Positions 1 to 44,971 of a DNA stretch of 64,000 nucleotides are shown piece after piece. Origin of the DNA: Escherichia phage finno; sequence record MN850619.1; one strand, written 5' to 3'. Under the pieces are notes generated by a model. That model had not been told where the DNA came from, searched no databases, and worked only from the letters and a program-made list of their open reading frames with translations. Positions within the stretch are counted from its first letter, which is position 1; every line of letters starts with the position of its first letter. The translations under genes and the position numbers were made by a program.

Positions 1-225
1 TTTTGCATAGTCACTAGAAAGCTGCTTAAGGCTATAATTTAAAGGGATTGCATATTTAAAATCGTTACGCTGACAGTTAGGGTTTTTAATAGTCACGCCG
101 CCTTGATGGTCATCTGTAAACTTCCAATTATCAAGATTATGGCTTGCTTCGTAGCAATTTACCGCTTCATAGATAATGGTGAATTTTTCTTTTACAACTT
201 CAAAGGTAGCGTCTACAGTTTTCAT
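1..225 (-). CDS. hypothetical protein, N-terminal part only (gene runs off window start)
   Basis: ATG at 225 on minus strand preceded by GGAGA RBS at the end of a repeated intergenic cassette; frame stays open to position 1. Confidence 0.5.
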   Translation of the reverse strand, partial: MKTVDATFEVVKEKFTIIYEAVNCYEASHNLDNWKFTDDHQGGVTIKNPNCQRNDFKYAIPLNYSLKQLSSDYAK

Positions 226-230
226 TTTTG

Positions 231-318
231 AATCTCCAATTTAGGATTTAGTGGTAAAGCTCTTTATCTGGGGCTTAAGATATCAACTTTTAAGCCCCTT
301 GTAAAGTACTTTATTTGT
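231..318 (-). promoter_or_regulatory. intergenic promoter/stem-loop cassette, copy 1
   Basis: On minus strand reads TTTACA, then GGGGCTTA/TAAGCCCC hairpin, then GGAGA RBS and ATG; near-identical copies at 609-698 and 1079-1168. Confidence 0.5.
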
Positions 319-604
319 TATTTTTCAGCTTTGCATAACTTCTCATTGTACGAATGGGGGATGTTAAGGCTATGCGTCTAATATATGCCTTTTTCGTGTA
401 TACATTTGTCTTCCCGATAGTGCTTACACATGTAAAAAGGTTTATCGGTGAATTTTTTAGCTTCAACTGTTTATCAGCCTTCACGCCCCACCTTACAGCA
501 GATTGTTTTCCGTTGTCAACCACTTTCCCGCATAACTTTTTAGCCATAGCGCGAGCGTCATCACGAGTTTTTGCAGTAATTACAACGTTTTTGATAATAG
601 CCAT
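311..604 (-). CDS. hypothetical protein
   Basis: ORF track 311..619; start moved to ATG at 604 because the track start is a TTG inside the GGAGAA RBS. Confidence 0.55.
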   Translation of the reverse strand: MAIIKNVVITAKTRDDARAMAKKLCGKVVDNGKQSAVRWGVKADKQLKLKNSPINLFTCVSTIGKTNVYTKKAYIRRIALTSPIRTMRSYAKLKNNK

Positions 605-608
605 TTTT

Positions 609-698
609 AAGTTCTCCAATTTAGGATTTAGTGGTAAAGCTCTTTATCTGGGGCTTACTTTATCGAACTATAAGCCCCTTGTAAAGTACTTTATTCGT
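609..698 (-). promoter_or_regulatory. intergenic promoter/stem-loop cassette, copy 2
   Basis: Minus strand TTTACA-AGGGGCTTATAGTTCGA-TAAAGT gives -35/-10-like boxes with 17 nt spacing around a GGGGCTTA/TAAGCCCC hairpin, followed by RBS. Confidence 0.5.
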
Positions 699-1074
699 TA
701 ATTTTGAAGATTGTTACATAACCATCGCTCCCGATGATTTGCGATACCCCAGCTTTTTCTACTTTATAGCCCATATTTTCAAGATGATAAACAGCATCAT
801 CATAACCATATGCGCCACCCTGATAACGTCGCTTATCGCATTTTATCAGGTTTTTACCACGTCCAGCAAGTGCATTCAGTACAGCTTTTTCACTTGATAG
901 CGTACCATCTAACATGGTTGCCGTGTAATGGTTGATTCTATTCCCGTTTACATCATACTTAAAATTGAATGCGTGAACAACAATAATGTTGCCTTTAAAA
1001 TTCTCATCAAGTGACTTCTCCAGTACTTTGCGAAAGTTGTCTTTGTTGATGAATTTCGGTGCACGATAAGCCAT
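691..1074 (-). CDS. hypothetical protein
   Basis: 127 aa ORF with AGGAGA RBS 7 nt upstream of ATG; flanked by repeat cassettes. Confidence 0.6.
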   Translation of the reverse strand: MAYRAPKFINKDNFRKVLEKSLDENFKGNIIVVHAFNFKYDVNGNRINHYTATMLDGTLSSEKAVLNALAGRGKNLIKCDKRRYQGGAYGYDDAVYHLENMGYKVEKAGVSQIIGSDGYVTIFKINE

Positions 1075-1078
1075 TTTT

Positions 1079-1168
1079 GAATCTCCTAGTTTAAGGTTAG
1101 TTAGTAAAGCTCTTTATCTGGGGCTTACTTTATCGAACTATAAGCCCCTTGTAAAGTACTTTATTTAT
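1079..1168 (-). promoter_or_regulatory. intergenic promoter/stem-loop cassette, copy 3
   Basis: Almost identical to copy 2 over the hairpin and TTTACA box. Confidence 0.5.
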
Positions 1169-1367
1169 CGTAGTAATAAATTGCTGTCTGTCTTGTAAAC
1201 TTCTTAGTATTTCTTGTCAGATAGCAATTAGAATTAATAGCCGTTTCTACATAGTTGCAATAGTCAGCTTCTGATATTCTGGACCACACGCCACAGATTT
1301 GCATGTAAAAACGTTTTGCCTTTGTGTTAATGTTAGTTGTAACCATCAATTCGCGACTGTACAGCAT
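1161..1367 (-). CDS. hypothetical small protein
   Basis: 68 aa ORF; GGAGA RBS upstream of ATG at 1367. Confidence 0.5.
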   Translation of the reverse strand: MLYSRELMVTTNINTKAKRFYMQICGVWSRISEADYCNYVETAINSNCYLTRNTKKFTRQTAIYYYDK

Positions 1368-1463
1368 TTTTAGATTCTCCAGTTTAGGAAGTGGGCTTGA
1401 TTGCCCGTCTGATGCAAATATTAGATAACCATACTCAAAGAGTCAATAGAAATTTTAAAAATA

Positions 1464-1476
1464 TTTTTTTTTTTTT
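1464..1476. repeat. T13 homopolymer tract (A13 on minus strand)
   Basis: Counted directly in sequence at 1464-1476 inside a non-coding region. Confidence 0.9.
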
Positions 1477-1627
1477 GCAAAATTGTAATGAAACGGGTGC
1501 GCGCGACTACCACAAAACAGAACTACAATCAAGAATTATTTTTCAATCCGCTACAAATTTTTCTGTTGACTTTTATTTCCAGATGTGGTAGCCTTGTGAG
1601 AAATAGCGACATCCCCACCTACACCCA

Positions 1628-1775
1628 CCTACCTGCACAATTCTAAAATGATTTTTCTTGCCCGACCTGATTTTTCTCTGCACGTTTTGAAAATGATTTT
1701 TCTATCCGGCGATGAGATTTTTTGGGATATCTGTACAGACCCCTCCAGATACCTGCACAAATTGAAAATGAAAAA
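1628..1775. repeat. three iteron-like direct repeats, core CTGCAC(A/G)nnTnnAAAATGA
   Basis: Copies at about 1628-1656, 1675-1701 and 1747-1775; GATTTTTCT also occurs three times between them. Confidence 0.7.
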
Positions 1776-1816
1776 GGCCGCCTTACCTTAAATTTTTCAA
1801 TGGGTTAGGCAGCCTT
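1766..1816 (-). terminator. rho-independent terminator candidate after macro-domain gene
   Basis: Imperfect hairpin AAGGCCGCC...GGCAGCCTT followed on minus strand by TTTTTCATTTTC; same stem as the hairpin at 5945-5964. Confidence 0.45.
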
Positions 1817-1849
1817 CTTAGATGATTTGTAGATACTGTGAAGTACTAA

Positions 1850-2629
1850 TCAGCTTATGAATTTGAACTTTTTAGAATACATCAAGTAGTGAACTTCATC
1901 CTGATTTGTTGTGTAGATGTACGCTGCTGGGTAGTTATCAAAGAACACCCCTTCATATCTTCCAAACGGGTCAACTGGGAACATTTCACTGTTACACATA
2001 CCCATCTCACTAACCAGAGGGTAACTAACCTCAACCTTGCCATCAACAAGCTGATAGAGGGTAACTTGATTAGTCTTCCCGTCACTTAGCACGACACCAT
2101 CATAGAATTGTGGTGCTGAGGTAGCATACTTAGGGGTAACTACACTTGCCATTGCTTCATCATAGACGTATAGGTACACATCAACGTTATACATAACACT
2201 ATTAATGAGGCTTTTCACAGCTTGTGCATCTAAACCACCTATACCTGCCCCAATCATGGGTAAACCAATCTTACGAATGTTGTGCAGCCAGCAAAATTTA
2301 CGGAGTTTTTCTAGTGACTCCACTAAGTATCGGTATGATGCACACTTCCCAACATCCAACTGTGTATATAGGTTAAAAATGTAACCATACTCCGTTCGAG
2401 CATGTGACACCTCACCAACCATCTGGTATCCGATATCATGAGCACTGTAGCCAAACTTTTTATGGAATTTCCGGTCAGCTTCTTCAGCTTTTGGGAAAAT
2501 CTTAGCAATTTTTTGAGCGATTCCAGCACCCATGAGGTTACGACAGTTGCAACCATGAGCAATTAACTCAATATCTGTGTTTTTGAAGGCAGCCAGTAAG
2601 TTACCTTTCACAACTTTTACAATACCCAT
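1850..2629 (-). CDS. macro-domain (ADP-ribose binding/hydrolase-like) protein with about 100 aa C-terminal extension
   Basis: Motifs VKVVKGNLL...IAHGCNCRNLMGAGIAQKI and IGLPMIGAGIGGLD resemble macro-domain signatures such as E. coli YmdB (recalled from memory). Confidence 0.6.
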   Translation of the reverse strand: MGIVKVVKGNLLAAFKNTDIELIAHGCNCRNLMGAGIAQKIAKIFPKAEEADRKFHKKFGYSAHDIGYQMVGEVSHARTEYGYIFNLYTQLDVGKCASYRYLVESLEKLRKFCWLHNIRKIGLPMIGAGIGGLDAQAVKSLINSVMYNVDVYLYVYDEAMASVVTPKYATSAPQFYDGVVLSDGKTNQVTLYQLVDGKVEVSYPLVSEMGMCNSEMFPVDPFGRYEGVFFDNYPAAYIYTTNQDEVHYLMYSKKFKFIS

Positions 2630-2830
2630 TTAACATCTCTCCCAAGATTCTTTATCTTCTGAAGGTTTTACACGTTGCCCCTCATGGTCTACCCAGATGC
2701 ACCCACAACCTTCACAGATTACTGGCATTGCATAGCCAGCTTTAAAGTCATCTTCAGTGATAAGACCTTTTAAGTCACCTGTATCACGTCCGAACATTTC
2801 GATAGAACAGTCTTTACAGAAGTCAGCCAT
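2630..2830 (-). CDS. small zinc-ribbon protein (CxxC...CxGC)
   Basis: Start moved to internal ATG at 2830 (MADFCKDC) with AGAGG RBS; avoids 86 nt overlap with upstream gene. Confidence 0.5.
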   Translation of the reverse strand: MADFCKDCSIEMFGRDTGDLKGLITEDDFKAGYAMPVICEGCGCIWVDHEGQRVKPSEDKESWERC

Positions 2831-3050
2831 GAATAATTGCCTCTTGAATGATGATACCTTTACCACAACGGCTTTTAAAGCCTTCCAATGGTTCAGAGAT
2901 GAAGCCACGTAAGCAGTCAGTGAATACTAAGTTCTTCCTGTAAGCTATCACATCATTTGCTGTAAATGGGATGACCTCATTTCGTCCAATGAACACTGCT
3001 GACCTGATAAGTTTTCGTGTCTTTTTATCTCTGGCTAGTATTACTTTCAT
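2823..3050 (-). CDS. hypothetical protein
   Basis: 75 aa ORF in co-directional tightly packed block. Confidence 0.45.
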   Translation of the reverse strand: MKVILARDKKTRKLIRSAVFIGRNEVIPFTANDVIAYRKNLVFTDCLRGFISEPLEGFKSRCGKGIIIQEAIIHG

Positions 3051-3351
3051 AGTTTACCTTCTCAGTTAGCTCATATAAGTCAACATGCTCAATACTGTCA
3101 ATGTTGATATCAATCTTTTTGAAACGCTCCATCACTTCGTTATCAGTCATCCATATCAGACACCAATGATTCTGGATGGATTCTTCAAGAAGGTCAACAC
3201 AATCTTTAAAAGTTTTTGTATCACTTCTTGTTCCTACTACTGCGATTGTTCCATATAGCCACTTACCATTGCCATAAGATACTTGTGCTACGCCAACTTC
3301 TTTACCTTTCTCATAGTAAACGGCTACAAAGTCTCTTCCATTAATCTGCAT
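3025..3351 (-). CDS. hypothetical protein
   Basis: 108 aa ORF. Confidence 0.5.
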   Translation of the reverse strand: MQINGRDFVAVYYEKGKEVGVAQVSYGNGKWLYGTIAVVGTRSDTKTFKDCVDLLEESIQNHWCLIWMTDNEVMERFKKIDINIDSIEHVDLYELTEKVNYESNTSQR

Positions 3352-3353
3352 AG

Positions 3354-3623
3354 TTACTTCCTCGTTTTAAGAATTGCTAAGATTTCTTTAGAGTCTGGTA
3401 AGAACCATGTGTAGTGATTCTCTTTGATTTCTGGATGAGTGTCAACCTTTATTTTGCAGTCTTTACCAACATGCTTAAGTTGTGCTGTGACACCTTGCAT
3501 AAGGATATGACACATCACATTATCCATAATGGTTGGTATGAAGTCAATTCGCATATAAGTTTCTTTTGGTCGCGGTAACAGTAAGTACCCCTCTACATAG
3601 AAAGTATCTTGATTCTCTGTCAT
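3354..3623 (-). CDS. hypothetical protein
   Basis: 89 aa ORF. Confidence 0.5.
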   Translation of the reverse strand: MTENQDTFYVEGYLLLPRPKETYMRIDFIPTIMDNVMCHILMQGVTAQLKHVGKDCKIKVDTHPEIKENHYTWFLPDSKEILAILKTRK

Positions 3624-3889
3624 TGCTGCTTATTCCCTAATAAAATCATGTCAATAAGGTTGTTAGCTTTGATTGTGCACTGGTAAAAGCCGTCACGATA
3701 GAACTCAAGGGCTGCTGCTACATCACTGCCTGTGTTGCCTTTGATGATATACCGTGATTCTTCTTGAGTGTACTTATCACTCTCACTTACTTGGGAGTTT
3801 TTGAATGTACTGCTCACTTTGTTCGTTGAACACCCTGACATAGTTATCAGTAACACAAACATTATAAAACTCTGGCTTAGTTTTTTCAT
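3620..3889 (-). CDS. putative lipoprotein (possible o-spanin)
   Basis: N-terminus MKKLSQSFIMFVLLITMSGC has signal peptide with lipobox-like Cys; start lies inside the upstream membrane-protein gene in another frame. Confidence 0.4.
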   Translation of the reverse strand: MKKLSQSFIMFVLLITMSGCSTNKVSSTFKNSQVSESDKYTQEESRYIIKGNTGSDVAAALEFYRDGFYQCTIKANNLIDMILLGNKQQ

Positions 3890-4130
3890 ATGTTAGTACC
3901 TCTTTTGTATGCTTATTCTTAGCAAGCACATCTTTCAAATCATTTTTGTAATTGGTGCTCAGTGTGACTAATCCTTCCTGATAAGCATCTTTAGCAACAC
4001 TTATGAGCTTTTGATTATTTAGCTCAGTTTCAGCAACTTGATAGTCTCTGTAAGAGTATCCTCCCCAGACACCTGCCCCAACTAAGAAAACAATTATGAA
4101 AGTAGCTTGACAGAACTCTTTAAATGTCAT
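3783..4130 (-). CDS. membrane protein with N-terminal TM helix (possible i-spanin)
   Basis: Hydrophobic segment ATFIIVFLVGAGVWGG then a charged region; the lipoprotein ORF is embedded at its 3' end. Confidence 0.4.
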   Translation of the reverse strand: MTFKEFCQATFIIVFLVGAGVWGGYSYRDYQVAETELNNQKLISVAKDAYQEGLVTLSTNYKNDLKDVLAKNKHTKEVLTYEKTKPEFYNVCVTDNYVRVFNEQSEQYIQKLPSK

Positions 4131-4144
4131 TTAACAATCTCCTG

Positions 4145-4172
4145 AAAATGAAAAAGGCTCCCGAAGGAGCCT
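4145..4172 (-). terminator. rho-independent terminator
   Basis: GGCTCC-CGAA-GGAGCC hairpin followed on minus strand by TTTTTCATTTTC. Confidence 0.7.
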
Positions 4173-4183
4173 GTATCTTAACC

Positions 4184-4648
4184 TTAACCGAGGACTTTAG
4201 CAAGGACATTTGCAGCCATCGAAGAAGCTTTTGCAGCAGCAGCTACCCCAGCTTTGACAGTGCTATCCTTGATAGCAGATACCGTTGCAGCATCAGTAAA
4301 GAGATAAGTAGTTGTTTTAGAACCACTTGTAAAGGAAAGCATGAGAGCAGTTTCCAGATTGAAAGAGCGATACGGAGCACCTTCTTTAACGATACCTTCA
4401 GCACCTAATTCTGAAGCCATCCCCATATCATAGATGGTCATCAGGTTTTCTTTGTGTGCTGTCGTTGAGCCAGAACCTTTTACGTGTTTCTTAACATTCA
4501 AAAGAGCACGATACTCTCGGATGTTGCCGTCTGCTTTTACATTGACAGCACGGAAGATTTTACCCTCAAAGTTGCTCTTGATAATGTTACGAACTACTTC
4601 AGATTTGTTTGCCGTAACGTCCAGTGCTACCGTAATGATATTGTTCAT
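4184..4648 (-). CDS. hypothetical protein
   Basis: 154 aa ORF. Confidence 0.55.
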   Translation of the reverse strand: MNNIITVALDVTANKSEVVRNIIKSNFEGKIFRAVNVKADGNIREYRALLNVKKHVKGSGSTTAHKENLMTIYDMGMASELGAEGIVKEGAPYRSFNLETALMLSFTSGSKTTTYLFTDAATVSAIKDSTVKAGVAAAAKASSMAANVLAKVLG

Positions 4649-4657
4649 AAGTTTCTC

Positions 4658-5353
4658 TCAATGTTTAACTAACATGGTTTTGATGTGTGGAAGGATTCTG
4701 TTCACCTTCTGCACATTCTTCTCTGTATCTTCTATAAAACATACTATATTAAAGTAAGGCAGAATGCAAGACTGAATCATCCTCACTTTCAAACTTTCTG
4801 CACTTATAGAGTTAGTACCAAAACCACGCATAAAAAGCATGTAGTCATGCTCTGTGTTATGTCTTAAAAACATCTCAGTAGGTATTCTCTGAGATTCGCC
4901 TCTCGCTGTCAAGAGTCCAACAGCAGCATGATTAGCAATTGCATCAATGATATTGAAAACATACGTTGGTTTTGCTCTTACAGAGTCAAGAAGATTAGTG
5001 TACTGCGAAAATGAACCATCAGTCAATTCCGTTGAACAATCTTCGTGATTAAAATTTGTAAGAACTCCATCAATATCTGCTAAGATAAGATTACCTTTCT
5101 CTACAAGGTCTTTATTGACTATGACTAAACTATCACGTTTTACACCTATGGATTGTCCAGTCTCTTTGTCCACAACGTTCACAATTGGTTCTGATGTGTG
5201 GAACTCTTCAAGTGAACATACAACTTCTCTTGCGGTGTCTTCAAAATCCCTGCACTGTTCTGGAGTCCATACACAGGAATCAAGACCTAGCTCATGAGGG
5301 TGCAAGTCATAAGCATGGCACAATACTTCATCAGACTTTCTTAATTTTTTCAT
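4658..5353 (-). CDS. hypothetical protein, possible HAD-like phosphatase/nucleotidase
   Basis: DIDGVL, LLTARGE and FIEDT resemble HAD motifs I, II and IV, but motif I is unusually far from the N-terminus. Confidence 0.3.
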   Translation of the reverse strand: MKKLRKSDEVLCHAYDLHPHELGLDSCVWTPEQCRDFEDTAREVVCSLEEFHTSEPIVNVVDKETGQSIGVKRDSLVIVNKDLVEKGNLILADIDGVLTNFNHEDCSTELTDGSFSQYTNLLDSVRAKPTYVFNIIDAIANHAAVGLLTARGESQRIPTEMFLRHNTEHDYMLFMRGFGTNSISAESLKVRMIQSCILPYFNIVCFIEDTEKNVQKVNRILPHIKTMLVKH

Positions 5354-5879
5354 GGTTTACCTTAGAAATGTTTGTTGCAAATTCACATTGAGCGATTACT
5401 TTCATATTGTTATAGACATCTTGAGAATATTTCTTAGCTTTAGGGATTCTGTACGAATACCCAGCATTATATGATGCTAAAACTTTTTGTAAAGTCTTCT
5501 TTGACTTTGGCTGACCATGCACCTTTGTCCAAAACTCAAGCTCTTTGTGAGTTTCCTTAGCAGCATAGTCAAAGTCTTTTAAGAGTTTCTTTTTAGCCAC
5601 ATTAGGACTGATTTTGTTACGCTTTACAACAGTCTTCAAGTGATTCTGGAAAATACCATAATCATGCGTCTTTTTATTCTCTACCTTCAGACCTAACTCT
5701 GACTCTTGTAAGGCTATAGCAGCTAGAGTGATACCCCAACCTTTACCCATGTTATTCTCACCATACTGGTAAGCTTTTAACATGTTTACTTTTTGGCTAA
5801 TTGATAGCTCTGGGCAGTCAACTGCATAAGATAAGTGTGCTGTAAACATTAAGCACAAACCTAGAATCAATTTCTTCAT
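5331..5879 (-). CDS. secreted protein with SLT-like motif (possible lytic transglycosylase)
   Basis: Signal peptide MKKLILGLCLMFTAHLSYA; AIALQESELG resembles the lytic transglycosylase catalytic Glu-Ser motif. Confidence 0.4.
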   Translation of the reverse strand: MKKLILGLCLMFTAHLSYAVDCPELSISQKVNMLKAYQYGENNMGKGWGITLAAIALQESELGLKVENKKTHDYGIFQNHLKTVVKRNKISPNVAKKKLLKDFDYAAKETHKELEFWTKVHGQPKSKKTLQKVLASYNAGYSYRIPKAKKYSQDVYNNMKVIAQCEFATNISKVNHEKIKKV

Positions 5880-5935
5880 TGGTTCTCCTGTTTAGTTTAT
5901 CGTGACAACAATTATACAGCACTCTGCACAAAATA

Positions 5936-5968
5936 CAAATAAAAAAGGCCGCCGAAGCAGCCTTTTAA
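5936..5968 (-). terminator. rho-independent terminator after rIIB-like gene
   Basis: AAGGCCGCC-GAA-GCAGCCTT hairpin flanked by A-run and T-run. Confidence 0.65.
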
Positions 5969-5979
5969 GAAATTACTTA

Positions 5980-7089
5980 TTAGATTTCACGTTTACGTTG
6001 GGAGATAAGTTCTCCAGCAGTGCCAACGATGACATGCAAAGCTTCAGTCTTACCATCCCATTCTTTCAGCACTTTACGTTGATTATCAACGATTGCTGCA
6101 ACTTCATAACGAGACGAACGCATCTTCATATCGTTGTAATCAGTTGGAACAGATACAACATCTCGTGGATGGACACGAACCTTCAGGATTGTATCACCTG
6201 AGAAGCAACGAACGTAATCCCAAGCACCAACATGAAGACCTTGAGAGCAAGTTACGTTACGGTTATTATCAACCATCCAACGTGGCATCTCTACAATGTT
6301 ACCCAAATCATTAGGTACTCTGTATGTGTGGGAGTCAACCAGCTTACCTTCACGAGTAGATACTTTCTTCCAACCAATGATGTAGCCTTCTTCATCGATT
6401 TCAACATCAAGGTGGGATACGAAGCCCCAAAGTTGTTCTACAGAGTCTTTAGATGGGTTTTCCATCAGTTTTTCGAAGAACATTACAAGGCGTTCAAAAC
6501 CCTTATCTCCAGTCTTCATCATGTGAAGAATACGGTCAACCAGAGTAGAACGCATCTCAACAGCACCGTAGAATAACTTATCCCCTTTGATGGTGATAGC
6601 GCCCTGAGTGAAGTTTTCGATAGACTTACGAATGTTCATCAGTTCGAAAGCTTTCTTATACTCACCGGATACAACAGCCATCACGATTTCTTTGTAGTTC
6701 GGATGGGTAGATTCAACGATTTCAGAATCTGCACCGAAAGTCATGATAACAGAGTCACCAGTAATCATGTACTCAATCTGGTTGCCATTCTGCATAGCTT
6801 CATGCAGTTTATTTACCGGAGCTTTCTGTACATCCTCTTTAACAGCCTTTTTAACTGGCTTGTCAGCTTTCTTCTTAAAGGTCTTAGCAACTTGCTTTAA
6901 AGTCTTCGTAGCCGGTGTAGAAGTTGCCTTTTTATTCCCTTTTAAGGTTGCTTCATGACGCTCTACAGCACGACCGACTGAACGGGTTGAGGTGTTAAAT
7001 TTCTGTGCAATAGCTGTTTTAGTCAGCTTGCCCTCTTTAACCAGTTTGTAAATTTCTGCGTCAATCTGTGCTTTAGTTTTAGTAGTCAT
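5980..7089 (-). CDS. rIIB: rIIB-like protein
   Basis: Directly downstream of rIIA-like gene; C-terminal KVRVHPRDVVSVPTDYNDMKMR matches T4 rIIB as recalled from memory. Confidence 0.7.
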   Translation of the reverse strand: MTTKTKAQIDAEIYKLVKEGKLTKTAIAQKFNTSTRSVGRAVERHEATLKGNKKATSTPATKTLKQVAKTFKKKADKPVKKAVKEDVQKAPVNKLHEAMQNGNQIEYMITGDSVIMTFGADSEIVESTHPNYKEIVMAVVSGEYKKAFELMNIRKSIENFTQGAITIKGDKLFYGAVEMRSTLVDRILHMMKTGDKGFERLVMFFEKLMENPSKDSVEQLWGFVSHLDVEIDEEGYIIGWKKVSTREGKLVDSHTYRVPNDLGNIVEMPRWMVDNNRNVTCSQGLHVGAWDYVRCFSGDTILKVRVHPRDVVSVPTDYNDMKMRSSRYEVAAIVDNQRKVLKEWDGKTEALHVIVGTAGELISQRKREI

Positions 7090-7133
7090 CTTATTACTCT
7101 CTCTTTTTAGTTAATAACTCATTTTGTGAGGCT

Positions 7134-7163
7134 ATTATAAGGGGCTTCAAAGCCCCTTGTCAA
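7134..7163 (-). promoter_or_regulatory. sigma70-type promoter with hairpin in the spacer
   Basis: Minus strand reads TTGACA, 18 nt spacer AGGGGCTTTGAAGCCCCT, TATAAT; about 40 nt upstream of the rIIB-like start. Confidence 0.6.
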
Positions 7164-7168
7164 GCACT

Positions 7169-9535
7169 TTAATCGTAAACTGTAGTCCCTTCTGGAACAC
7201 ATTTTACATCAAAGCCTAAGAACTTACTCACTTCAATAGGTGACACTTTATTCCAATCTAAATGGGAAAGCAAGAAGTTTTCTTGTTTTCTTTTTGAAAG
7301 GTAGTTTGTCACCTTGATAACCATACGGTCACCAGCTTTCTTAATTTTCTTGTACAGTTTTGTATCATTGTCAAGGCATTCTTTCAAAGTTTGCAATCTA
7401 CTAATAGTGTAAGTATATGCAAATGGTGCAGCAACATACTGGATTTTACCGAAAATTGCCTCTACAGCCTCTTCGTTACCTTCTAGGAAGATAGTTTTGC
7501 TAGTATCTCGTGAGTAGCAATAACCACGAGAAATCTTCCTGTTATTGAATGTAAAGTTTCTGGCAATAATCCAACTGCTTGTAAGGTCAAGAACACCATT
7601 CATGTAGGTGCGTGTCATGTACCTGTTATGATTAATCCAATGAACATCAGTTAAGCTGTCGTTCAAGAGCTTCTCATCTACTTCAATCCAGTCTTCTGGT
7701 ATCTTTTTCCAATTTGCTTTTCGGAAAACATAGACTGTCTTTCCAATAACATTAGCAACTGACTTAGCTACATCTTCTGGAGATGAGCAAAAGCATTCGC
7801 CATCAACTGTGTCACCTACTGCCTTAATGTAAAGCTGGGGTTCTTCAATTGTGTCTAAGTCTTCTGACACCTCTTTGTAGGAGGCTACACCTTCTGCTGG
7901 AACAGCTTTCCAGAGTTTTACAACACCTCTTACAGCTTCTTTACGCTGGTAATGGTGTTCCTTATCAGACATTTTCACAATCTTTAACAAGCTTTTATCA
8001 AGTTTGTGTAGATTGATTAAATCATCTAAATCTTTTTCAGTCGAGAATACAAACACAATGCCATTGTATCTGTGAAACAGGCTTGACTCGTTGGCGTAGT
8101 CTCGACATGCACCACGCAGAATCTGATTGCGGCCTACAGTCTTCTCAGTACCGTTTTTATTGCGACGGTCATTAATAACAAACAAAAACTGTTCAATTTG
8201 GCTTTTACGCATTGCGCCAAAGATATTGAACATACTTGCCTCTTGAGTGTAGGAAAGTGCTGTTGCACGAATCTTACTCTCTAAAGAGTTGAACTTGACA
8301 TAAGCAACTGGATTATAAAGATAATCTACTTTAGGGATATTGTTCCCGTTTCTATCAACCTTAATATTACCTTTGCCGTCACGTTCATAAATGACTGAGC
8401 CGTCTTCTGCGTAGATAATCCCACGACGAATGTTTAGTAATTCTTCTTCCAGAGTATCAAGTTTAACACCACCCCACTCTAGCTTTGGACACACAGCATT
8501 AAACATTTCTCGTGAGTTCAAACGTAACTCTGCATAAGCCTGTGCAGCATCCATGAGTGTAGGTTGGCTATTAACTTTCTTGATAACATCCTTTGTAATT
8601 GCTTCAGTTATCTTTTTAGTAGCCTCAATGATAACATTTTTTGTCGTATCATTCATCTGCAATGCTTCACGAGAAGCTGCAATAGCAACTGAACCAATAG
8701 GCATGTAAATGTTTACAAGGTCTACGCTCCTACGGAAAAACTCTGGCAAGACTTTGAAGAAATCATCACCAAGTAATGCTTCCATATTAACTGGATAGGC
8801 AATATTACCCATCACCACATTAAACTCTGTCCTGTTGCCACTAGAACGCCAGCTTTGCTTATGAATCATAGCATCATAAACACCCTCTTCACGGGCAATG
8901 ACGTTCATATCTGCTAACACATCATCATATACAATATTGCTTTCTGGTTTTACAGCAAAGTATGAATATACGTGACCAGCCTCTTCAAAGAACTTTGAAA
9001 TACGGTGGTCAGCAACTGCTACACGTACAGCTAAACCATTGGGTTCATTTGTTGGGTTAGTAGTAAGTTTAGTTACTTGAGGGATACCATTCTCAAGGTA
9101 AACAGAGTACTTATTAACAACACCATCAACATAACTAGATACTGTGAATGACTGAGCAATTGCAAATGGGGATTTTGAGCCGATACCCATTGCACCAATG
9201 TAATCATTAGAGTCATTCTTCGTAGAAGCCCCATAGTTCAGATACAAACTCATTACTTTGTCATGGGTTAAACCAGTTCCAAAGTCACGGACTTCAAAGT
9301 AAGGCTCAAATCGAGTAGGTAAATGCACATGGAACGGGATGTTCTCTTTTCCAGCTTCTTTCTGAGCATCTACTGCATTACATGACAGTTCACGAATCAC
9401 TGCCCTTTCTTTAAATGTGTATACACCAGAACTCAAAAGGCTGAACATTTCAGGTGTCATTGTAATCTGTGCTTGAGATGTCTCCAAAGAAGTTGAACTC
9501 TTAATCACTTCTGCGTGGTCATTTACCATGCGCAT
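7169..9535 (-). CDS. rIIA: rIIA-like protein (GHKL ATPase-like N-terminus)
   Basis: KERAVIRELSCNAVDA, RDFGTGL and SNDYIGAMGIGSKSPF match conserved T4 rIIA N-terminal motifs (recalled from memory). Confidence 0.8.
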   Translation of the reverse strand: MRMVNDHAEVIKSSTSLETSQAQITMTPEMFSLLSSGVYTFKERAVIRELSCNAVDAQKEAGKENIPFHVHLPTRFEPYFEVRDFGTGLTHDKVMSLYLNYGASTKNDSNDYIGAMGIGSKSPFAIAQSFTVSSYVDGVVNKYSVYLENGIPQVTKLTTNPTNEPNGLAVRVAVADHRISKFFEEAGHVYSYFAVKPESNIVYDDVLADMNVIAREEGVYDAMIHKQSWRSSGNRTEFNVVMGNIAYPVNMEALLGDDFFKVLPEFFRRSVDLVNIYMPIGSVAIAASREALQMNDTTKNVIIEATKKITEAITKDVIKKVNSQPTLMDAAQAYAELRLNSREMFNAVCPKLEWGGVKLDTLEEELLNIRRGIIYAEDGSVIYERDGKGNIKVDRNGNNIPKVDYLYNPVAYVKFNSLESKIRATALSYTQEASMFNIFGAMRKSQIEQFLFVINDRRNKNGTEKTVGRNQILRGACRDYANESSLFHRYNGIVFVFSTEKDLDDLINLHKLDKSLLKIVKMSDKEHHYQRKEAVRGVVKLWKAVPAEGVASYKEVSEDLDTIEEPQLYIKAVGDTVDGECFCSSPEDVAKSVANVIGKTVYVFRKANWKKIPEDWIEVDEKLLNDSLTDVHWINHNRYMTRTYMNGVLDLTSSWIIARNFTFNNRKISRGYCYSRDTSKTIFLEGNEEAVEAIFGKIQYVAAPFAYTYTISRLQTLKECLDNDTKLYKKIKKAGDRMVIKVTNYLSKRKQENFLLSHLDWNKVSPIEVSKFLGFDVKCVPEGTTVYD

Positions 9536-9563: not shown

Positions 9564-9740
9564 TTACTTATTAAACATTTTACCAGAACCACCACAAATA
9601 GGGCAACAGCCTGCTCTTGTATACCCTTCCCCGTTGCAGTAATCACACTTCTTGCACTCTGCATAGTACTTGCAAAGAAGGTAAACAAATACTGCTACAC
9701 TACCAAGTGACAGTAAAATTTCTATCCAATATGCTTGCAT
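9564..9740 (-). CDS. small membrane-anchored protein with DnaJ-type zinc finger (58 aa, not in ORF track)
   Basis: Hand translation: hydrophobic N-terminus then CDYCNGEG and CPICGGSG; GAGGTGA RBS upstream of ATG at 9740. Confidence 0.45.
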   Translation of the reverse strand: MQAYWIEILLSLGSVAVFVYLLCKYYAECKKCDYCNGEGYTRAGCCPICGGSGKMFNK

Positions 9741-10110: not shown

Positions 10111-11892
10111 TTAAAGCTGCTTGTCAATATTATTTCGAATATCACCAAGAGTTGTGTAACCGAACTGCTCAGAGTCACTAAAGACTAAACGTAAAGCACA
10201 AGCTGGGTGGTCAAGTACATCTGCAAAACTCTGGAATCCATAGCCATCTACAGCTTTCAGCTTATCACCATCCCACATAGGTGCTACACCACCAAAGGCA
10301 GATTTCTTAACACCACTATCTGTTTTAGGGTCTTTTGCAAGCATAATCTCTTTACCACCAATGCTTGCAAGAGTTGCTTTGACAGCAAATGCAAAGGTGT
10401 CACGAGTCATGTACTGGTAAGTGTAAGAACCTACGCCAAACACCACGTTAGAGCTTGCAAAACCCATTTCATACAGACGCTTCAGGATTTCGTTTGCACG
10501 TTCCAGTGTGATAGAGTCACCATAGATAAGGCCGATATGCTCGTCCAGTACCTTAAATCCTTTAGAGTTAATAGTTCCCCCAAAGATGTTGTACAGTGTC
10601 TTAATAGCTCCATCAATCTCAGCTACAGGACGTGTTACAACGTTTGCAGAGCCAACCATATAAGCATTTTTCAACATCACTGTATCAGCAACTTCAAAGT
10701 CTTCTCGGTCAACAACCATTTCGTAGCCTTCTGACAGTAGCCATCCAGCAATACCATAGCTGATGTTTTCAAGCTTCATGTTCAGAACAGCATTCAGCAT
10801 TGTGTCACTGGCTTCCAGCTTGCTTAGGTGCTCGTAATAAGCCTTTTTAGCACACTCTAAGTGGATTGCTTTATAACCTGTGACAATATGTACAGGGTCT
10901 CCAGAGTCAGGACGAATTACCAGTTTACCGTCACGTTCCATAATTTCTTTACGAAGTGCTGGTAAGATTTCTGACACAGTTCTCCAGAAGTTATAAGTGT
11001 CTGAAACAATACTTGCAATACCAGTTGGGTAAGTTTCTGTTAAGAAACGACGGAAGGTTTGTAACTCACCTTTAAATCGTCTTTCTTCTTCAACCAACTC
11101 GTTACCACCTTCCCAAGCAATGTTTGCACACATTACAGAGTGTTCAGTGGCTGGTACAGAGCTTCCAATATCAGAGATTGGATAGGTCTGCCCATAGATA
11201 CGTTTAGCCGTGTATACAGCAGGGAAGCTATCAGTCCCTTTAAAGCTGGTTAAGTGTCCTACAGCGTTGAATGCGTCATCAGTAAAGCCGGACATACCAC
11301 GCATAGCAAAGTCATGGCACTGATAAGGTAAATGCAAGTCGTTGTCGCAAGTGAGGTCAGCCCACTTCTTACAGATACGTTTGTAGTGCAATGCAATAGT
11401 TGCAATGGTGCAAGCCTTCCAAATCTCAGCAGAGAAAGCGTCTTCTAGATAACCTGCTACCCAATGGAAACCTGAAACAGTGTTCTGGAAGACAATCATT
11501 GGAACACGCATAGGAACAACTGTACCTTCTTCTACAGCGTATACTTCAACTGGTAGATAGCCTAAATCGTGAAGTGCTTCCCAATGCTCTCGACCGATAG
11601 CATCTTTACCCAGAACACCATTCATGACTTCTAAGATTTCGTCAACTGCTCCTTTTTTATCACGTTCAAAGAAAGTGGCGTTCCAGTGGTCTATCAAGTA
11701 ATCTTTAACAAAACGTTGAATACCAAAAGCTACTACACCATCAATTGCTAAGGGGCTGTTAAACCATTTGTCGCTACGTGGTGTCAGGTTGAACATCAAG
11801 TAATCTGTTGCACTGGGGTATTGGTAAACATGGCCAGATTTGTAAGCGTCCGCGTTTAAACCTGCTGGTACTGCATAAAGTGATTTAGTCAT
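10111..11892 (-). CDS. nadV: nicotinamide phosphoribosyltransferase (NAMPT)
   Basis: 593 aa; N-terminal ADAYKSGHVYQYP is characteristic of NAMPT. Confidence 0.8.
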   Translation of the reverse strand: MTKSLYAVPAGLNADAYKSGHVYQYPSATDYLMFNLTPRSDKWFNSPLAIDGVVAFGIQRFVKDYLIDHWNATFFERDKKGAVDEILEVMNGVLGKDAIGREHWEALHDLGYLPVEVYAVEEGTVVPMRVPMIVFQNTVSGFHWVAGYLEDAFSAEIWKACTIATIALHYKRICKKWADLTCDNDLHLPYQCHDFAMRGMSGFTDDAFNAVGHLTSFKGTDSFPAVYTAKRIYGQTYPISDIGSSVPATEHSVMCANIAWEGGNELVEEERRFKGELQTFRRFLTETYPTGIASIVSDTYNFWRTVSEILPALRKEIMERDGKLVIRPDSGDPVHIVTGYKAIHLECAKKAYYEHLSKLEASDTMLNAVLNMKLENISYGIAGWLLSEGYEMVVDREDFEVADTVMLKNAYMVGSANVVTRPVAEIDGAIKTLYNIFGGTINSKGFKVLDEHIGLIYGDSITLERANEILKRLYEMGFASSNVVFGVGSYTYQYMTRDTFAFAVKATLASIGGKEIMLAKDPKTDSGVKKSAFGGVAPMWDGDKLKAVDGYGFQSFADVLDHPACALRLVFSDSEQFGYTTLGDIRNNIDKQL

Positions 11893-11912: not shown

Positions 11913-11928
11913 GGGGCTTTCAAGCCCC
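11913..11928 (-). promoter_or_regulatory. GGGGCTT/AAGCCCC stem-loop between prs and NAMPT genes
   Basis: Hairpin GGGGCTTTCAAGCCCC; same stem family as the 5' cassettes and the 7141-7158 promoter hairpin. Confidence 0.45.
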
Positions 11929-12843: not shown

Positions 12844-13241
12844 ATAACCTTTCTACGCTTTATCTGGATAATGTTCTTTTTACAATATTCGATAGCTTCA
12901 TCTATTGACCCAAAACTTTCCTTCTCCACAAAGAAGCGAACTTCACCATCTTGTATCTTTTGTTCTTCGGCTGTTGGCTCTTCAAGTATTTTACTTGATA
13001 CTTCTCTGTTAATCTGCATTACATACTCGAAAGAGTTCTTCTTGTATCCAACTATTTTAATGTAACCCCTCTGGCGAAGACGATTGAACCGAGTTGACTT
13101 GTTTGTCTTGGATACATCTGGAAATTCCTTGTCATGGATACTACGTATCTGTGAGCAAGTAAATGTTTTATCATAGCCAAACTCATTATACAGGACTTTT
13201 AACAGTTCAATCATAACATCACTCCCAAATAACTTTTGCAT
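12834..13241 (-). CDS. paralog family protein, subtype B copy 2
   Basis: Start moved to ATG at 13241 (MQKLFGSDVM) to match subtype B copy 1; shares C-terminal motif ending KVIWE. Confidence 0.55.
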   Translation of the reverse strand: MQKLFGSDVMIELLKVLYNEFGYDKTFTCSQIRSIHDKEFPDVSKTNKSTRFNRLRQRGYIKIVGYKKNSFEYVMQINREVSSKILEEPTAEEQKIQDGEVRFFVEKESFGSIDEAIEYCKKNIIQIKRRKVIWE

Positions 13242-13683
13242 GTTTAACTTTAATAAGATGCTCTTTGCAGTGCTCAATAGCTTCATCTAGTGTTTTAAAC
13301 ATAACATCCGCGATAAAGTATCTTACGTCAGGTTGTACATCAACATCTTTAACCTCAGATAAGTTTGATTTTTGTGAACTCCCCAACTCTTCACGCGTGT
13401 TATCTAGCATCCTTGACAGTTGTATGTGCTTCTCCATAAAGGCTCGATTTAATTGATTAATACTTAGTCTACCTTTGCTTTTTACCTGCCCTACAGTCAG
13501 TAGTACACCAGACTGTCTTAACATTGTTAGATACCCACGGGTATTACTGATTGACTGGCCTCGTATAAAAAGGCTATTCTCTCTTAATGCGTCAATTGCT
13601 TCGTTAGAGTCAAAAGTGTTTTCTGTCCCGAAGGTTTTGTATAAAATCTCTATTACGTGCTTCTGTAAATTGCAAAAAATCAT
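13219..13683 (-). CDS. paralog family protein, subtype A copy 2
   Basis: Colinear with 14105..14560 over its whole length (MIFC..QK..IEILY...FDSNEAI...EHCK...KVIWE). Confidence 0.6.
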   Translation of the reverse strand: MIFCNLQKHVIEILYKTFGTENTFDSNEAIDALRENSLFIRGQSISNTRGYLTMLRQSGVLLTVGQVKSKGRLSINQLNRAFMEKHIQLSRMLDNTREELGSSQKSNLSEVKDVDVQPDVRYFIADVMFKTLDEAIEHCKEHLIKVKHAKVIWE

Positions 13684-13704
13684 AGTGTATTCCTAATCAA
13701 ATGT

Positions 13705-14127
13705 TTAAACTTCTTCCCAAACAATACGCTTTCTTTTTGTTTGGATAACCGTCCTCTTACAATGCTCAACTGCTGCCTCCATACTGGTAAAGTGTATGTC
13801 ACCTATGAAGTACCCTACTTCACCTACACTGACCTCTTCATCCTTTTGTTGATAGTCATTACAATTTAAAAGCACATTTTTAGCTTTGCTTTCATTGATT
13901 CTCATAAGATACTCATTATTAAATCCTGTCGCTCCAACAACACTAATGTACCCACTTTTACGTAATCTGTGAGACCAATTAGCTTTATCCCTGATTGAAG
14001 CATGTGGTAGATATTTATTAAAAACCTTAGTTAGTTGTGAGCCAGAAAATGTTTTATCATAGCCAAAATTTATATACAGAACCTTCAGAAGCTCAAACAT
14101 GTTATTACTCCCAAATAATTTTTGCAC
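13705..14127 (-). CDS. paralog family protein, subtype B copy 1
   Basis: MQKLFGSNNMFELLKVLY N-terminus; C-terminal AAVEHCKRTVIQTKRKRIVWE. Confidence 0.6.
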   Translation of the reverse strand: MQKLFGSNNMFELLKVLYINFGYDKTFSGSQLTKVFNKYLPHASIRDKANWSHRLRKSGYISVVGATGFNNEYLMRINESKAKNVLLNCNDYQQKDEEVSVGEVGYFIGDIHFTSMEAAVEHCKRTVIQTKRKRIVWEEV

Positions 14128-14560
14128 GTTTTACTTTGATAATATACTTTTTGCAGTGTTCAACAGCATCTTGGAGTGTATCAAACATCAACTCACCAAT
14201 AAAGAATTTTATGTCTGGAGACACACCTACACCACCACTTAAGTCTTTTTGCTGCTCTTCACGTTGGTTTCGTGGCTCTTTAAGTAAATAGTCTAGCTGA
14301 ATGTGCTTCTCAATAAAACCTCTATTTAATTGGTTGATGAGCATCCTCCCTTGTTGCTTAATCTGTCCTACCACGATGAGCACACCCCACTTTCTCATCT
14401 GAGTCAAGTAGTACCTGATGTTTGCTATTGGCTGTTTTTTGATGTAATCACTTCCTTCTTGTAGGGCTTCAATAGCTTCATTTGAGTCAAATGTGTTATC
14501 TGTCCCAAACTTATTGTATAGAATCTCAATAATTCTTTTTTGGAAGCTGCAAAAAATCAT
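14105..14560 (-). CDS. paralog family protein, subtype A copy 1
   Basis: 151 aa; C-terminal DAVEHCKKYIIKVKRAKIIWE. Confidence 0.6.
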   Translation of the reverse strand: MIFCSFQKRIIEILYNKFGTDNTFDSNEAIEALQEGSDYIKKQPIANIRYYLTQMRKWGVLIVVGQIKQQGRMLINQLNRGFIEKHIQLDYLLKEPRNQREEQQKDLSGGVGVSPDIKFFIGELMFDTLQDAVEHCKKYIIKVKRAKIIWE

Positions 14561-14569
14561 AATTTTCTC

Positions 14570-14848
14570 TCAATCAAAAGTTACGTTTGTTACTGCCATT
14601 GCAGATTTGCATTTTACAGGGTCTACAACGTGATAAAGTACACTACAGTTACCTGTGCTGTCTGGTACAGGCTTTACCCATTGCTGCTTTATAGTTGGCT
14701 CCCCTAAGTCTTTGTAAGAGCCATCTGTAAAGTTGTTTACCATCTCAAGTGCAATTGGTTCTGGAACATGACCACGTATCATGTACATTTCACAACCATT
14801 ACCACCTTCACTGACTAATGGTAAAATCTCCCACTTCTCTTTAGCCAT
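14570..14848 (-). CDS. hypothetical protein
   Basis: 92 aa ORF. Confidence 0.5.
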   Translation of the reverse strand: MAKEKWEILPLVSEGGNGCEMYMIRGHVPEPIALEMVNNFTDGSYKDLGEPTIKQQWVKPVPDSTGNCSVLYHVVDPVKCKSAMAVTNVTFD

Positions 14849-15730: not shown

Positions 15731-15988
15731 TTATTTAGCCTTCTTATTACGTTTACGGTTACGAGCTTTCTTAGCTGCTCGTTTAATAGCTGCTGCACCA
15801 GACGGACGATGGGCTTGTTTCTTACCACCTTTGCCACGGCCTACATAGATACTTTTCATAATCTCATTGGCCAGCTTCTCATCCATCTTGAAGTTCTGCA
15901 TAAGATGAGTCACATCAACTCCAGTGAGCATACCTAATGAAGCTAGTGCTGCTTTTACTTTTGATTTAAAACTATTCCAGATTCCCAT
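15731..15988 (-). CDS. small basic protein, Lys/Arg-rich C-terminus
   Basis: 85 aa; C-terminal AAKKARNRKRNKKAK. Confidence 0.5.
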   Translation of the reverse strand: MGIWNSFKSKVKAALASLGMLTGVDVTHLMQNFKMDEKLANEIMKSIYVGRGKGGKKQAHRPSGAAAIKRAAKKARNRKRNKKAK

Positions 15989-16633: not shown

Positions 16634-17029
16634 TCATTCAAACACTACCTGACAGGGAACCTGTTTAGTAATAAACTCTTCACAGTGCTCTTTAATGAAG
16701 TTTTGTAATGGCACACAGTCTTGTGCACAAGTCATTAGCATAATGTACTCTGGATTCATAATATTTTCAAGACTGTAGAAGACAACATTGTCAGATAATT
16801 CATGACCGTCTTCTTCAGACCAAGTTCCAGTGACTACAGCTAATTTGTCAAGCAATTCATTAGGCAACGGTACACCATCTTCTACGGAATCACTTAGAAC
16901 GTTGTCGCTGATGTACAATGTGAAGGTCGTATGGAATGTTGAGTATTTTACGTGATTCTTTTCGCAAGAGCCACACTCTGAGGCGTAATCTTTAAGCCAC
17001 TCTAACTGTTTTTGATTTAACTTAATCAT
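16634..17029 (-). CDS. hypothetical protein
   Basis: 131 aa ORF between nrdD and nrdG. Confidence 0.55.
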   Translation of the reverse strand: MIKLNQKQLEWLKDYASECGSCEKNHVKYSTFHTTFTLYISDNVLSDSVEDGVPLPNELLDKLAVVTGTWSEEDGHELSDNVVFYSLENIMNPEYIMLMTCAQDCVPLQNFIKEHCEEFITKQVPCQVVFE

Positions 17030-44925: not shown

Positions 44926-44944
44926 TATAAATTTTCCTCTTAAA

Positions 44945-44962
44945 AGGGGCTATACAGCCCCT
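44945..44962 (-). promoter_or_regulatory. stem-loop between the two tail fibre genes
   Basis: AGGGGCT-ATACA-GCCCCT hairpin; weak T-run (TTTTAAG) then GAGGA RBS. Confidence 0.4.
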
Positions 44963-44971
44963 GTAAAGAAA

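Follow-up and report, generated by a model that had tools for sequence, protein, structure and literature searches.

Promoter and stem-loop cassettes between small genes of the Felix O1-like Escherichia phage finno: probable composite units of the promoter-early stem-loop type

We analysed a stretch of 64,000 nucleotides (nt) from Escherichia phage finno (sequence record MN850619.1), referred to hereafter as the window, in which three cassettes of about 100 nt occupy the boundaries between small genes, each starting at the stop codon of one gene and ending at the GGAGA ribosome-binding site (RBS) and ATG of the following one. The cassettes are probably composite units of the type known as promoter-early stem-loops (PeSLs), which were described in the T4-like phages RB49/phi1, T4/PST and KVP40/nt-1 (PMC2839356; PMC4122927). 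Such a unit would join a promoter, a hairpin that folds in read-through RNA and a recombination repeat.

Bases 1-6000 of the window match Felix O1-like phages (Felixounavirus, Ounavirinae) with 92-95% identity, including Salmonella phage Si3 and many Escherichia and Salmonella phages. The gene strand of the first ~32 kb of the window is the minus strand and the cassettes are therefore read on that strand. A preliminary description had placed the three cassettes between a gene stop and a GGAGA RBS plus ATG without stating a strand; the cassettes are real and have these boundaries, and all three are on the minus strand, to which all coordinates in this paragraph refer. Cassette A (1072-1175) begins in the last codons of a gene for 68 amino acids (aa), includes its stop TAA (1163-1161) and ends at the ATG (1074-1072) of a 127-aa gene. 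Its -35 hexamer is TTTACA (1155-1150), its -10 hexamer TAAAGT (1132-1127) and its Shine-Dalgarno sequence (SD) GGAGA (1086-1082), with an inner hairpin at 1148-1120 and an extended hairpin at 1163-1105. Cassette B (602-705) leads from the stop TAA (693-691) of the 127-aa gene to the ATG (604-602) of a 97-aa gene, and contains TTTACA (685-680), TAAAGT (662-657), GGAGA (617-613) and hairpins at 678-650 (inner) and 693-635 (extended). Cassette C (223-325) leads from the stop TAA (313-311) of the 97-aa gene to the ATG (225-223) of a gene that is cut by the window edge and is the orthologue of Felix O1 gene 16. It contains TTTACA (305-300), a -10 hexamer TATCTT (282-277) preceded by TGn (extended -10), GGAGA (237-233) and hairpins at 298-270 (inner) and 313-255 (extended). 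The range given previously for this third cassette, 231-318, stops just short of its ATG.

Read 5' to 3', the cassettes share one order: the last codons and TAA of the upstream gene, AGTAC, TTTACA, one variable base, GGGGCTTA, a loop of 11-13 nt, TAAGCCCC, AGATAAAGAGCTTTAC, ~20 nt, GGAGA, 6-8 nt and ATG. The -10 hexamer consists of the final bases of the loop and the first base or bases of the hairpin 3' arm. An A/T-rich tract, AAAA(A/T)TAAC.AATAAAGTAC, precedes the -35 hexamer and overlaps the final 4-5 codons of the upstream genes, which are unrelated to each other. The exact pattern GGGGCTTA-N(4-24)-TAAGCCCC had three matches (270-298, 650-678 and 1120-1148), compared with none expected from 100 shuffles. 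A repeat finder returned the cassettes as a 93-nt family (233-325, 613-705 and 1083-1175) with 90% and 74% ungapped identity to the first copy. The repeat reaches ~12 nt into the upstream genes (1175-1164, 705-694 and 325-314, minus strand), and because of this the unrelated upstream proteins end in similar, cassette-encoded tails (...FKINE, ...LKNNK and ...VKNNK), which overlap the A-rich tract before the -35.

A promoter scan returned TTTACA-17-TAAAGT twice and TTTACA-17-TATCTT once, the latter with the TG of the extended -10. TTTACA was invariant across an alignment of 54 copies from three genera, and within the variable loop only the T, A and T of the -10 hexamer were invariant. A TAnnnT hexamer followed TTTACA in 66 of the 67 distinct cassette segments from four Ounavirinae genera, at 17 nt in 59 and at 18 nt in 7. 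Twelve different -10 hexamers were present among the 67 segments, and the lone exception to TAnnnT was one T-to-C change. As a control, TAnnnT was found in 3 of 39 chance flank matches; these came from a loose flank-only pattern search of IMG/VR, which mostly gave single chance matches in unrelated contigs. Erwinia phage phiEa21-4 and its relatives carry cassettes with other stems, GGTGTTTA..TAAGCACC and GGGGTTAT..ATAACCCC. Copies with the GGTG..CACC stem follow the TAnnnT rule; in the GGGGTTAT..ATAACCCC type GATTAT stands at 17 nt, where the A and final T are present and the first T is not. GATAAA, located after the hairpin, was considered as an alternative -10 and rejected (last position not T; 31 nt from the -35). 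The only experimental support, which is indirect, comes from Felix O1, where genes 16 and 20 lie just downstream of two 57-bp repeats (discussed below) and belong to the genes with maximal expression 5 min after infection, as measured by reverse transcription PCR (PMC3185647). The promoters and terminators predicted in that paper do not include these repeats (PMC3185647). From the pattern of conservation we infer that the cassettes very probably carry promoters.

RNA folding upheld the stem-loops of the preliminary description, with energies of -23.6 to -24.3 kcal/mol for the cassette hairpins and z = -3.5 to -4.6 versus shuffles. The extended hairpin is predicted to be an imperfect stem of ~20 base pairs (bp) in three segments (6 + 5 + 9 bp), interrupted by a 1x1 mismatch and by a 3x3 internal loop with invariant bases. 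Its outer stem joins TAAAGT, which includes the stop codon, and CTTTA, which belongs to the -35, to TAAAG and GCTTTA downstream; in the 13 loci compared (the window and 12 related loci) the extended stem usually opens with the stop codon as its first triplet. Cassette stems were 6-13 bp long, with at least 8 bp in 63 of 67, while control segments mostly had 5 bp or fewer. The Erwinia-phage GGGGTTAT..ATAACCCC type keeps the promoter and inner hairpin without the outer stem and has only 8-10 bp. A search of window 1-2000 with the Rfam 15 covariance models gave two sub-threshold chance matches only.

The pairing pattern points to one strand. The proposed structure was paired in 97.3% of cells in a MAFFT alignment (A1) versus 32-58% with slid partners. 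In A1 a gap is misplaced in the 28-nt hairpin variants, producing false unpaired cells at pairs 30-47 and 31-46; stem pairs were re-counted by walking inward from the stem base, a procedure in which 12 sequences with an extra G are mis-anchored beyond pair 4. Most pairs are invariant and informative pairs are few. Inner pair 3 is G-C in 59 copies and T-A in 8, all of the latter from Erwinia phages, and pairs 7-9 flip between T-A, A-T and C-G. Outer pair 13-64 is G-C in 40 distinct copies and U-A in 8, with 3 exceptions. Pair 5 is C-G in 24 of the 51 distinct hairpins, U·G in 26 and U-A in 1, while outer pair 14-63 is U·G in 49 of 51 copies. A sense-strand C·A was never seen at the wobble positions, and the complement of each U·G would be a mismatched A·C. 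Since the U·G wobbles pair on the sense strand only, we conclude from these sequence comparisons that the folded sense strand is apparently under selection, with RNA as the obvious candidate, and we lean towards a hairpin that acts at the RNA level.

The predicted transcription starts lie ~7-8 nt past the -10 at ~1120/1119, 650/649 and 270/269 (minus strand), which are the final bases of the hairpin 3' arm. Because the -10 lies within the hairpin, a cassette's own transcript lacks the hairpin 5' arm and only read-through RNA can fold. The preliminary description had suggested that the cassettes supply a structured RNA 5' end; with the predicted start at the end of the 3' arm the cassette's own transcript cannot form the hairpin, and this suggestion was abandoned. 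The transcript from the cassette promoter is instead predicted to start with an unstructured leader of ~45 nt in which the SD is free. The hairpin is followed by AGAUAAAG and the outer stem by CCACUAAA. A canonical Rho-independent terminator was rejected for the cassettes (no U-tract, a loop of 11-13 nt and no match in a terminator scan), and the hairpin is unlikely to be an efficient intrinsic terminator. Its role is more likely, in our view, to lie in attenuation, in giving a 3' end that is processed or protected, or in both.

The cassettes are restricted to one group of phages and to one place in their genomes. Matches were found at 1353 places in 288 phage records, all Felix O1-like (Escherichia, Salmonella, Shigella, Citrobacter and Erwinia phages), a few of them oddly named. 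An exact-pattern scan of IMG/VR returned only Felix O1-sized contigs or their fragments, with 1-10 copies each. Consistent with their description as elements of gene boundaries, no copy in the window and the 12 related loci lay inside a gene, and all were intergenic and on the gene strand. There were 57 copies in the 13 loci, every one between a stop codon and GGAGA-ATG, and all copies form a single array downstream of a macro-domain gene. The array runs on past the left edge of the window, which contains only its first three cassettes; it has six cassettes in phage garuso and seven in XTG1. The genes between cassettes had no Pfam match, and their PHROGs matches were only to groups of unknown function.

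Gene order around the cassettes differs between close relatives. The open reading frames of the 13 loci were clustered into families (F), and gene orders were written with any cassette as C. The window and garuso have F17-C-F18-C-F11-C-F21..., Felix O1 has F17-C-F21, wV8 has F18-C-F11-C-F12 and AN17P8 has F18-C-F11-C-F13. In LF82P5 the order is F17-C-F13, and nine genes and five cassettes are absent. One downstream gene (product MKCYH...) has five different upstream genes in five phages. In BLAST the single Felix O1 cassette aligns both with window 1574-1072, through cassette A, and with window 312-1, from cassette C; the 760 bp between the two alignments (two genes and two cassettes) are an indel bounded by the repeat. 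For wV8 and AN17P8 the BLAST joint falls in the shared SD block, that of the 68-aa gene behind the first promoter of the array (see below). The loop type at orthologous junctions varies between phages and is drawn from a small repertoire, which indicates exchange between cassettes. We regard it as highly likely that recombination occurs at the cassettes. The earlier suggestion that they are mobile regulatory modules holds for recombination linkers, in that indels end inside cassettes, and does not hold for autonomous elements.

These features can be combined in one model. Each cassette would provide a host sigma-70 early promoter, composed of the A-rich upstream tract, TTTACA, a spacer of 17-18 nt and TAnnnT. 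This promoter would start a ~45-nt leader with the conserved GGAGA RBS and so give each downstream gene a transcript of its own. The spacer, -10 and discriminator are written within a G4/C4 hairpin, which would be extended by pairing of the stop-codon/-35 region with GATAAAGAGCTTTA. The hairpin would form only in sense RNA that reads through from upstream, where it is predicted to be very stable and to lie exactly where the upstream cistron ends. Its likeliest role would be to insulate the units from each other, through attenuation of read-through and/or a protected or processed 3' end of the upstream message. Homologous recombination between the direct-orientation repeats of ~100 nt would then delete, insert or swap gene-plus-cassette modules and leave the expression of the neighbours undisturbed.

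Several observations weigh against this model. The bare consensus score of the promoters is only 9/12, and 45 such sites were found in the 12.5 kb scanned versus 30 expected by chance. As a bare match the promoter is unconvincing because 9/12 sites are common by chance, and it is the conservation pattern that makes it convincing. The searchable literature gives no transcript mapping for any Felix O1-like phage. The loop is long (11-13 nt), a U-tract is missing, and a terminator scan that detects the canonical terminators of this genome misses the cassettes, so that the terminator half of the PeSL definition may not hold here. Independent covariation events are few: duplication and gene conversion link the copies to one another, and the pair counts given above overstate independence as a result. 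Whole-element folding energies of the sense and antisense strands are equal on average (-22.4 vs -22.5 kcal/mol), and for this reason the strand argument rests on the kinds of non-Watson-Crick pairs. Only copies with U·G at pair 5 favour the sense strand in folding; the antisense strand is 3.4 kcal/mol weaker in these (GGGGT copies). Finally, AGATAAAGAG is invariant beyond what pairing needs, which the model leaves unexplained.

Two alternatives accept that the element is regulatory and differ in what the palindrome does. If the promoter is real, the extended 20-bp hairpin might mainly be an RNase III-type site like those between the T7 early genes, at which polycistronic read-through RNA is cut into individual messages, leaving a protective 3' stem. 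The general shape of the T7 early RNase III sites is that of the cassette structure, and the predicted 6 + 5 + 9 bp with a 1x1 mismatch, a 3x3 internal loop and invariant bases, the missing U-tract that makes canonical termination unlikely and the sense-strand specificity conferred by U·G pairs would all agree with such a site. It would be hard to apply to the Erwinia-phage GGGGTTAT..ATAACCCC type, which without an outer stem is too short at 8-10 bp, or to the related element between rIIA and rIIB described below, where the stem is also only 8-10 bp. For this part of the hairpin's function, an RNase III site is a serious competing explanation, with perhaps a modest chance of being correct. The palindromes could also be duplex-DNA operators, with a dimeric phage or host protein on the arms, or on two TAAAGnnCTTTA motifs, shutting the early promoters jointly. 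Two near-palindromic TAAAG-nn-CTTTA motifs do occur 46-47 bp apart, one on the -35 and the other at ~+5 to +16; an operator could also account for AGATAAAGAG, which is invariant beyond the pairing requirement, and the timing of Felix O1 transcription is stated as unknown (PMC3185647). The distance between the arms varies, however: hairpin lengths are 28, 29 and 30 nt, and in the rIIA/rIIB element the loop measures 4 nt. The stem sequence changes with pairing kept (GGGG/CCCC to GGTG/CACC and to GGGGTTAT/ATAACCCC), as expected for a folded strand, and half of the copies carry T·G, an A·C on the other strand, which has no meaning in duplex DNA. An operator is therefore improbable.

The remaining alternatives assign no promoter or no regulatory role to the cassettes, and both are very improbable. 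Under one, they are terminators only, acting on the gene strand or on the opposite strand. The latter is how the wV8 and XTG1 GenBank records have it, in which annotation programs called opposite-strand Rho-independent terminators, the hairpin there being followed by TTGTAAAGTACTTTATT. These annotations (wV8 7536-7580; XTG1 6096-6116, 8708-8728, 9573-9593 and 11127-11147) fall on cassette hairpins in the cases located and are probably a prediction artefact. On the opposite strand the 30-kb block has no genes at all, each sense U·G pair turns into a C·A mismatch and the folds of the GGGGT copies are 3.4 kcal/mol weaker; on the gene strand there is no U-tract. Nor would terminators explain the invariant TTTACA and the fixed-spacing TAnnnT in a variable loop. 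Under the other, a palindromic unit of ~100 nt repeated 1 to 10 times per genome would be a selfish element, similar to miniature inverted-repeat transposable elements, that spreads by transposition and has no regulatory role. Such spread would not be expected to leave orientation and register identical in every copy, with the stop on the left and the SD and ATG on the right, or to stay confined to one region of one phage subfamily, with all exact-pattern matches in IMG/VR on Felix O1-sized contigs. Recombination between copies, adding or removing the intervening genes, also explains the changes in copy number. The composite of promoter, read-through hairpin and recombination repeat is the reading that we prefer.

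The array itself starts after a terminator and a non-coding stretch of ~400 nt with an ordinary promoter at 1446-1418 (TTGACT 1446-1441, 17 nt, TAATAT 1423-1418; whole feature 1365-1446, minus strand). This promoter is followed by a hairpin in the 5' untranslated region (5' UTR; GGGC..GCCC, 1406-1393, minus strand), by the CTAAACTGGAGA SD block that the cassettes also have and by the ATG (1367-1365) of the 68-aa gene. The non-coding stretch (window 1440-1850) lies between this promoter and a terminator-like hairpin (~1815-1765, minus strand) that corresponds to Felix O1 t13. It contains three copies of CTGCAC(A/G)nnTnnAAAATGA (1633, 1678 and 1753), of which garuso has four; these may serve as an array of sites bound by protein, for example iterons or regulator sites.

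Other cassette types were seen in related phages. In the same region of garuso, outside the window, a second type occurs at 13675-13764, 14526-14628, 15760-15851 and 16942-17022. It has TTGACA-17-TAAATT, a hairpin GGGGAGGgaatgaCCTTCCCC downstream of the -10 in the 5' UTR and then a shared CCTAAACTGGAGATTC SD block, and the reading as a structured RNA 5' end would apply to this type. In phiEa21-4, TTGACA-18-TAAAAT is found upstream of the genes at 13201 and 13509, with TAAAAT as the loop of AGGGGT..CCCCT. Placing the -10 in the loop of a G4/C4 hairpin seems to be a recurring habit of Ounavirinae. Among the database records, 'Staphylococcus phage SA1' (GU169904.1, 147 kb) contains DNA 92% identical to the window, which suggests a mixed or contaminated assembly.

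The preliminary description had listed three further sites with the same stem, and these proved to be of two kinds. The first, at 7141-7158, does lie in a canonical promoter as stated there: TTGACA (7163-7158), 18 nt and TATAAT (7139-7134), all on the minus strand and matching the consensus at 12/12 positions. The hairpin AAGGGGCTTTGAAGCCCCTT (7158-7139) fills the 18-nt spacer, with a stem of only 8-10 bp and a 4-nt loop. The whole element (7087-7171, minus strand) is located between rIIA (stop 7171-7169) and rIIB (ATG 7089-7087). The sites at 11913 and 44945 have a stem of the same type (GGGGCT..AGCCCC) but fall outside the cassette family. They are terminator-like hairpins followed by (A)TTTT, and neither 11928-11913 nor 44962-44945 has promoter hexamers or a TAnnnT at promoter spacing. 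At 11928-11913 (minus strand), between two metabolic genes, the short hairpin is GGGGCTTGAAAGCCCC followed by ATTTT; at 44962-44945 (minus strand), in the tail-fibre region, it is AGGGGCTGTATAGCCCCT followed by TTTAAG, and this hairpin is the counterpart of the Felix O1 site that has been listed as terminator t76 (PMC3185647). Three canonical terminators with a shared stem, AGGCTCC..GGAGCCT, and a T-run are present at 4172-4155, 5966-5943 and 10099-10076 (minus strand), and these were detected by the terminator scan in which the cassettes gave no match. The tail-fibre genes (window 42455-45200) have short direct repeats within them, similar to those reported in Felix O1 genes 76 and 77 (PMC3185647).

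The repeat itself is known, and its reading as a PeSL-type unit of promoter, hairpin and shuffling is apparently new for Felix O1-like phages. These phages are widely used in typing of Salmonella and E. coli, biocontrol and therapy, and the Felix O1 analysis called the organisation and timing of its transcription unknown (PMC3185647). Seen as early promoter units, the repeats would give a dozen uncharacterised early genes in each genome promoters that can be tested, and would explain why gene content of this region differs between phages that are otherwise 92-95% identical. They would extend modular shuffling of the PeSL type past the T4-like phages. For phage engineering, the cassettes would be useful as natural, self-contained expression units and predictable sites of recombination.

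The closest match to a published element is the 57-bp direct repeat of Felix O1, whose printed sequence CTTTACATGGGGCTTAAAAGTCTGTAAAGTAAGCCCCAGATAAAGAGCTTTACCACT is the cassette core (PMC3185647). The GenBank record of wV8 marks the same element as repeat_region DR_1, DR_7 and DR_9. In both sources it is recorded as a direct repeat only, without interpretation: the Felix O1 paper describes neither the hairpin nor the -10 in its loop and draws no connection to gene shuffling (PMC3185647), and the wV8 paper does not mention the repeats. A literature search with sequence strings matched the Felix O1 paper only, and the searchable literature contained no promoter or stem-loop reading for Felixounavirus or Ounavirinae. 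Among general classes of element, intrinsic terminators share with the cassettes a G+C-rich hairpin right after the stop, and the hairpins at 11928-11913 and 44962-44945 fit that class loosely. The RNase III hairpins of T7 early genes are likewise long, imperfect and intercistronic with an internal loop; they are neither promoters nor recombination repeats.

The likeness to PeSLs goes further. PeSLs are defined by an upstream stop, an A/T-rich tract, a sigma-70-like promoter, a G-run/C-run stem-loop, an SD and an ATG, with the stem-loop most often between the -35 and -10 or overlapping the -10 (PMC2839356, PMC4122927). They are concentrated among ORFans (genes lacking homologues) in hyperplastic regions and have been implicated in indels (PMC2839356, PMC4122927). 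The resemblance noted in the preliminary description extends to every feature that can be examined in silico: the cassettes have the stop, the A/T tract, the -35 and -10, a G/C-run stem-loop on the -10, the SD and the ATG. Their -35, TTTACA, agrees with the TTTACW of the T4/PST PeSL promoter consensus, TTTACW-N17-TAYWAT (PMC4122927). Read from the genome, an RB49 PeSL has the form TAAAGTTG-TTGACA-GGGGATCGGTGATCCCC-TATAAT...GGAGAATCAAAAATG. RB49 PeSLs align part for part with the rIIA/rIIB element of the window (TTGACA-GGGG..CCCC-TATAAT) and with the cassettes, and RB49 also has AAAGTnn ahead of the -35 and an SD block that is nearly identical, GGAGA(A/T)TCAAAAATG. As with PeSLs, the cassettes cluster between small ORFans in a hyperplastic early region, and indels between close relatives end in the motifs.

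There are also differences. The lineage here is Ounavirinae and not Straboviridae, which concerns where PeSLs have been described and not how they work. The Felix O1-type cassette is longer and far more uniform (~100 nt, 75-100% identity), its -10 stands in the loop of a 28-30 nt hairpin, and most cassettes have an extra outer stem formed by the stop-codon/-35 region and invariant GATAAAGAGCTTTA, for ~20 bp in total. The Felix O1-type cassettes were analysed here at the level of sequence; experiments with RB49 PeSLs established strong promoters, a stem-loop that lowers downstream expression and mini-circles (PMC2839356, PMC4122927). Cassettes and T4-like PeSLs have in common AAAGTnn-TT(G/T)ACA, a G4..C4 spacer stem and the SD block GGAGA(A/T)TCAAAAATG, and T4-like early genes (rIIA/B, pseT and Tk.4) are neighbours of the cassettes. 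It is conceivable, if rather doubtful, that the two are true evolutionary homologues and not look-alikes. If they are, unrelated families of virulent myoviruses would share one integrase-free, integron-like cassette system for trialling small early genes, and gene-plus-cassette modules could move between those families.

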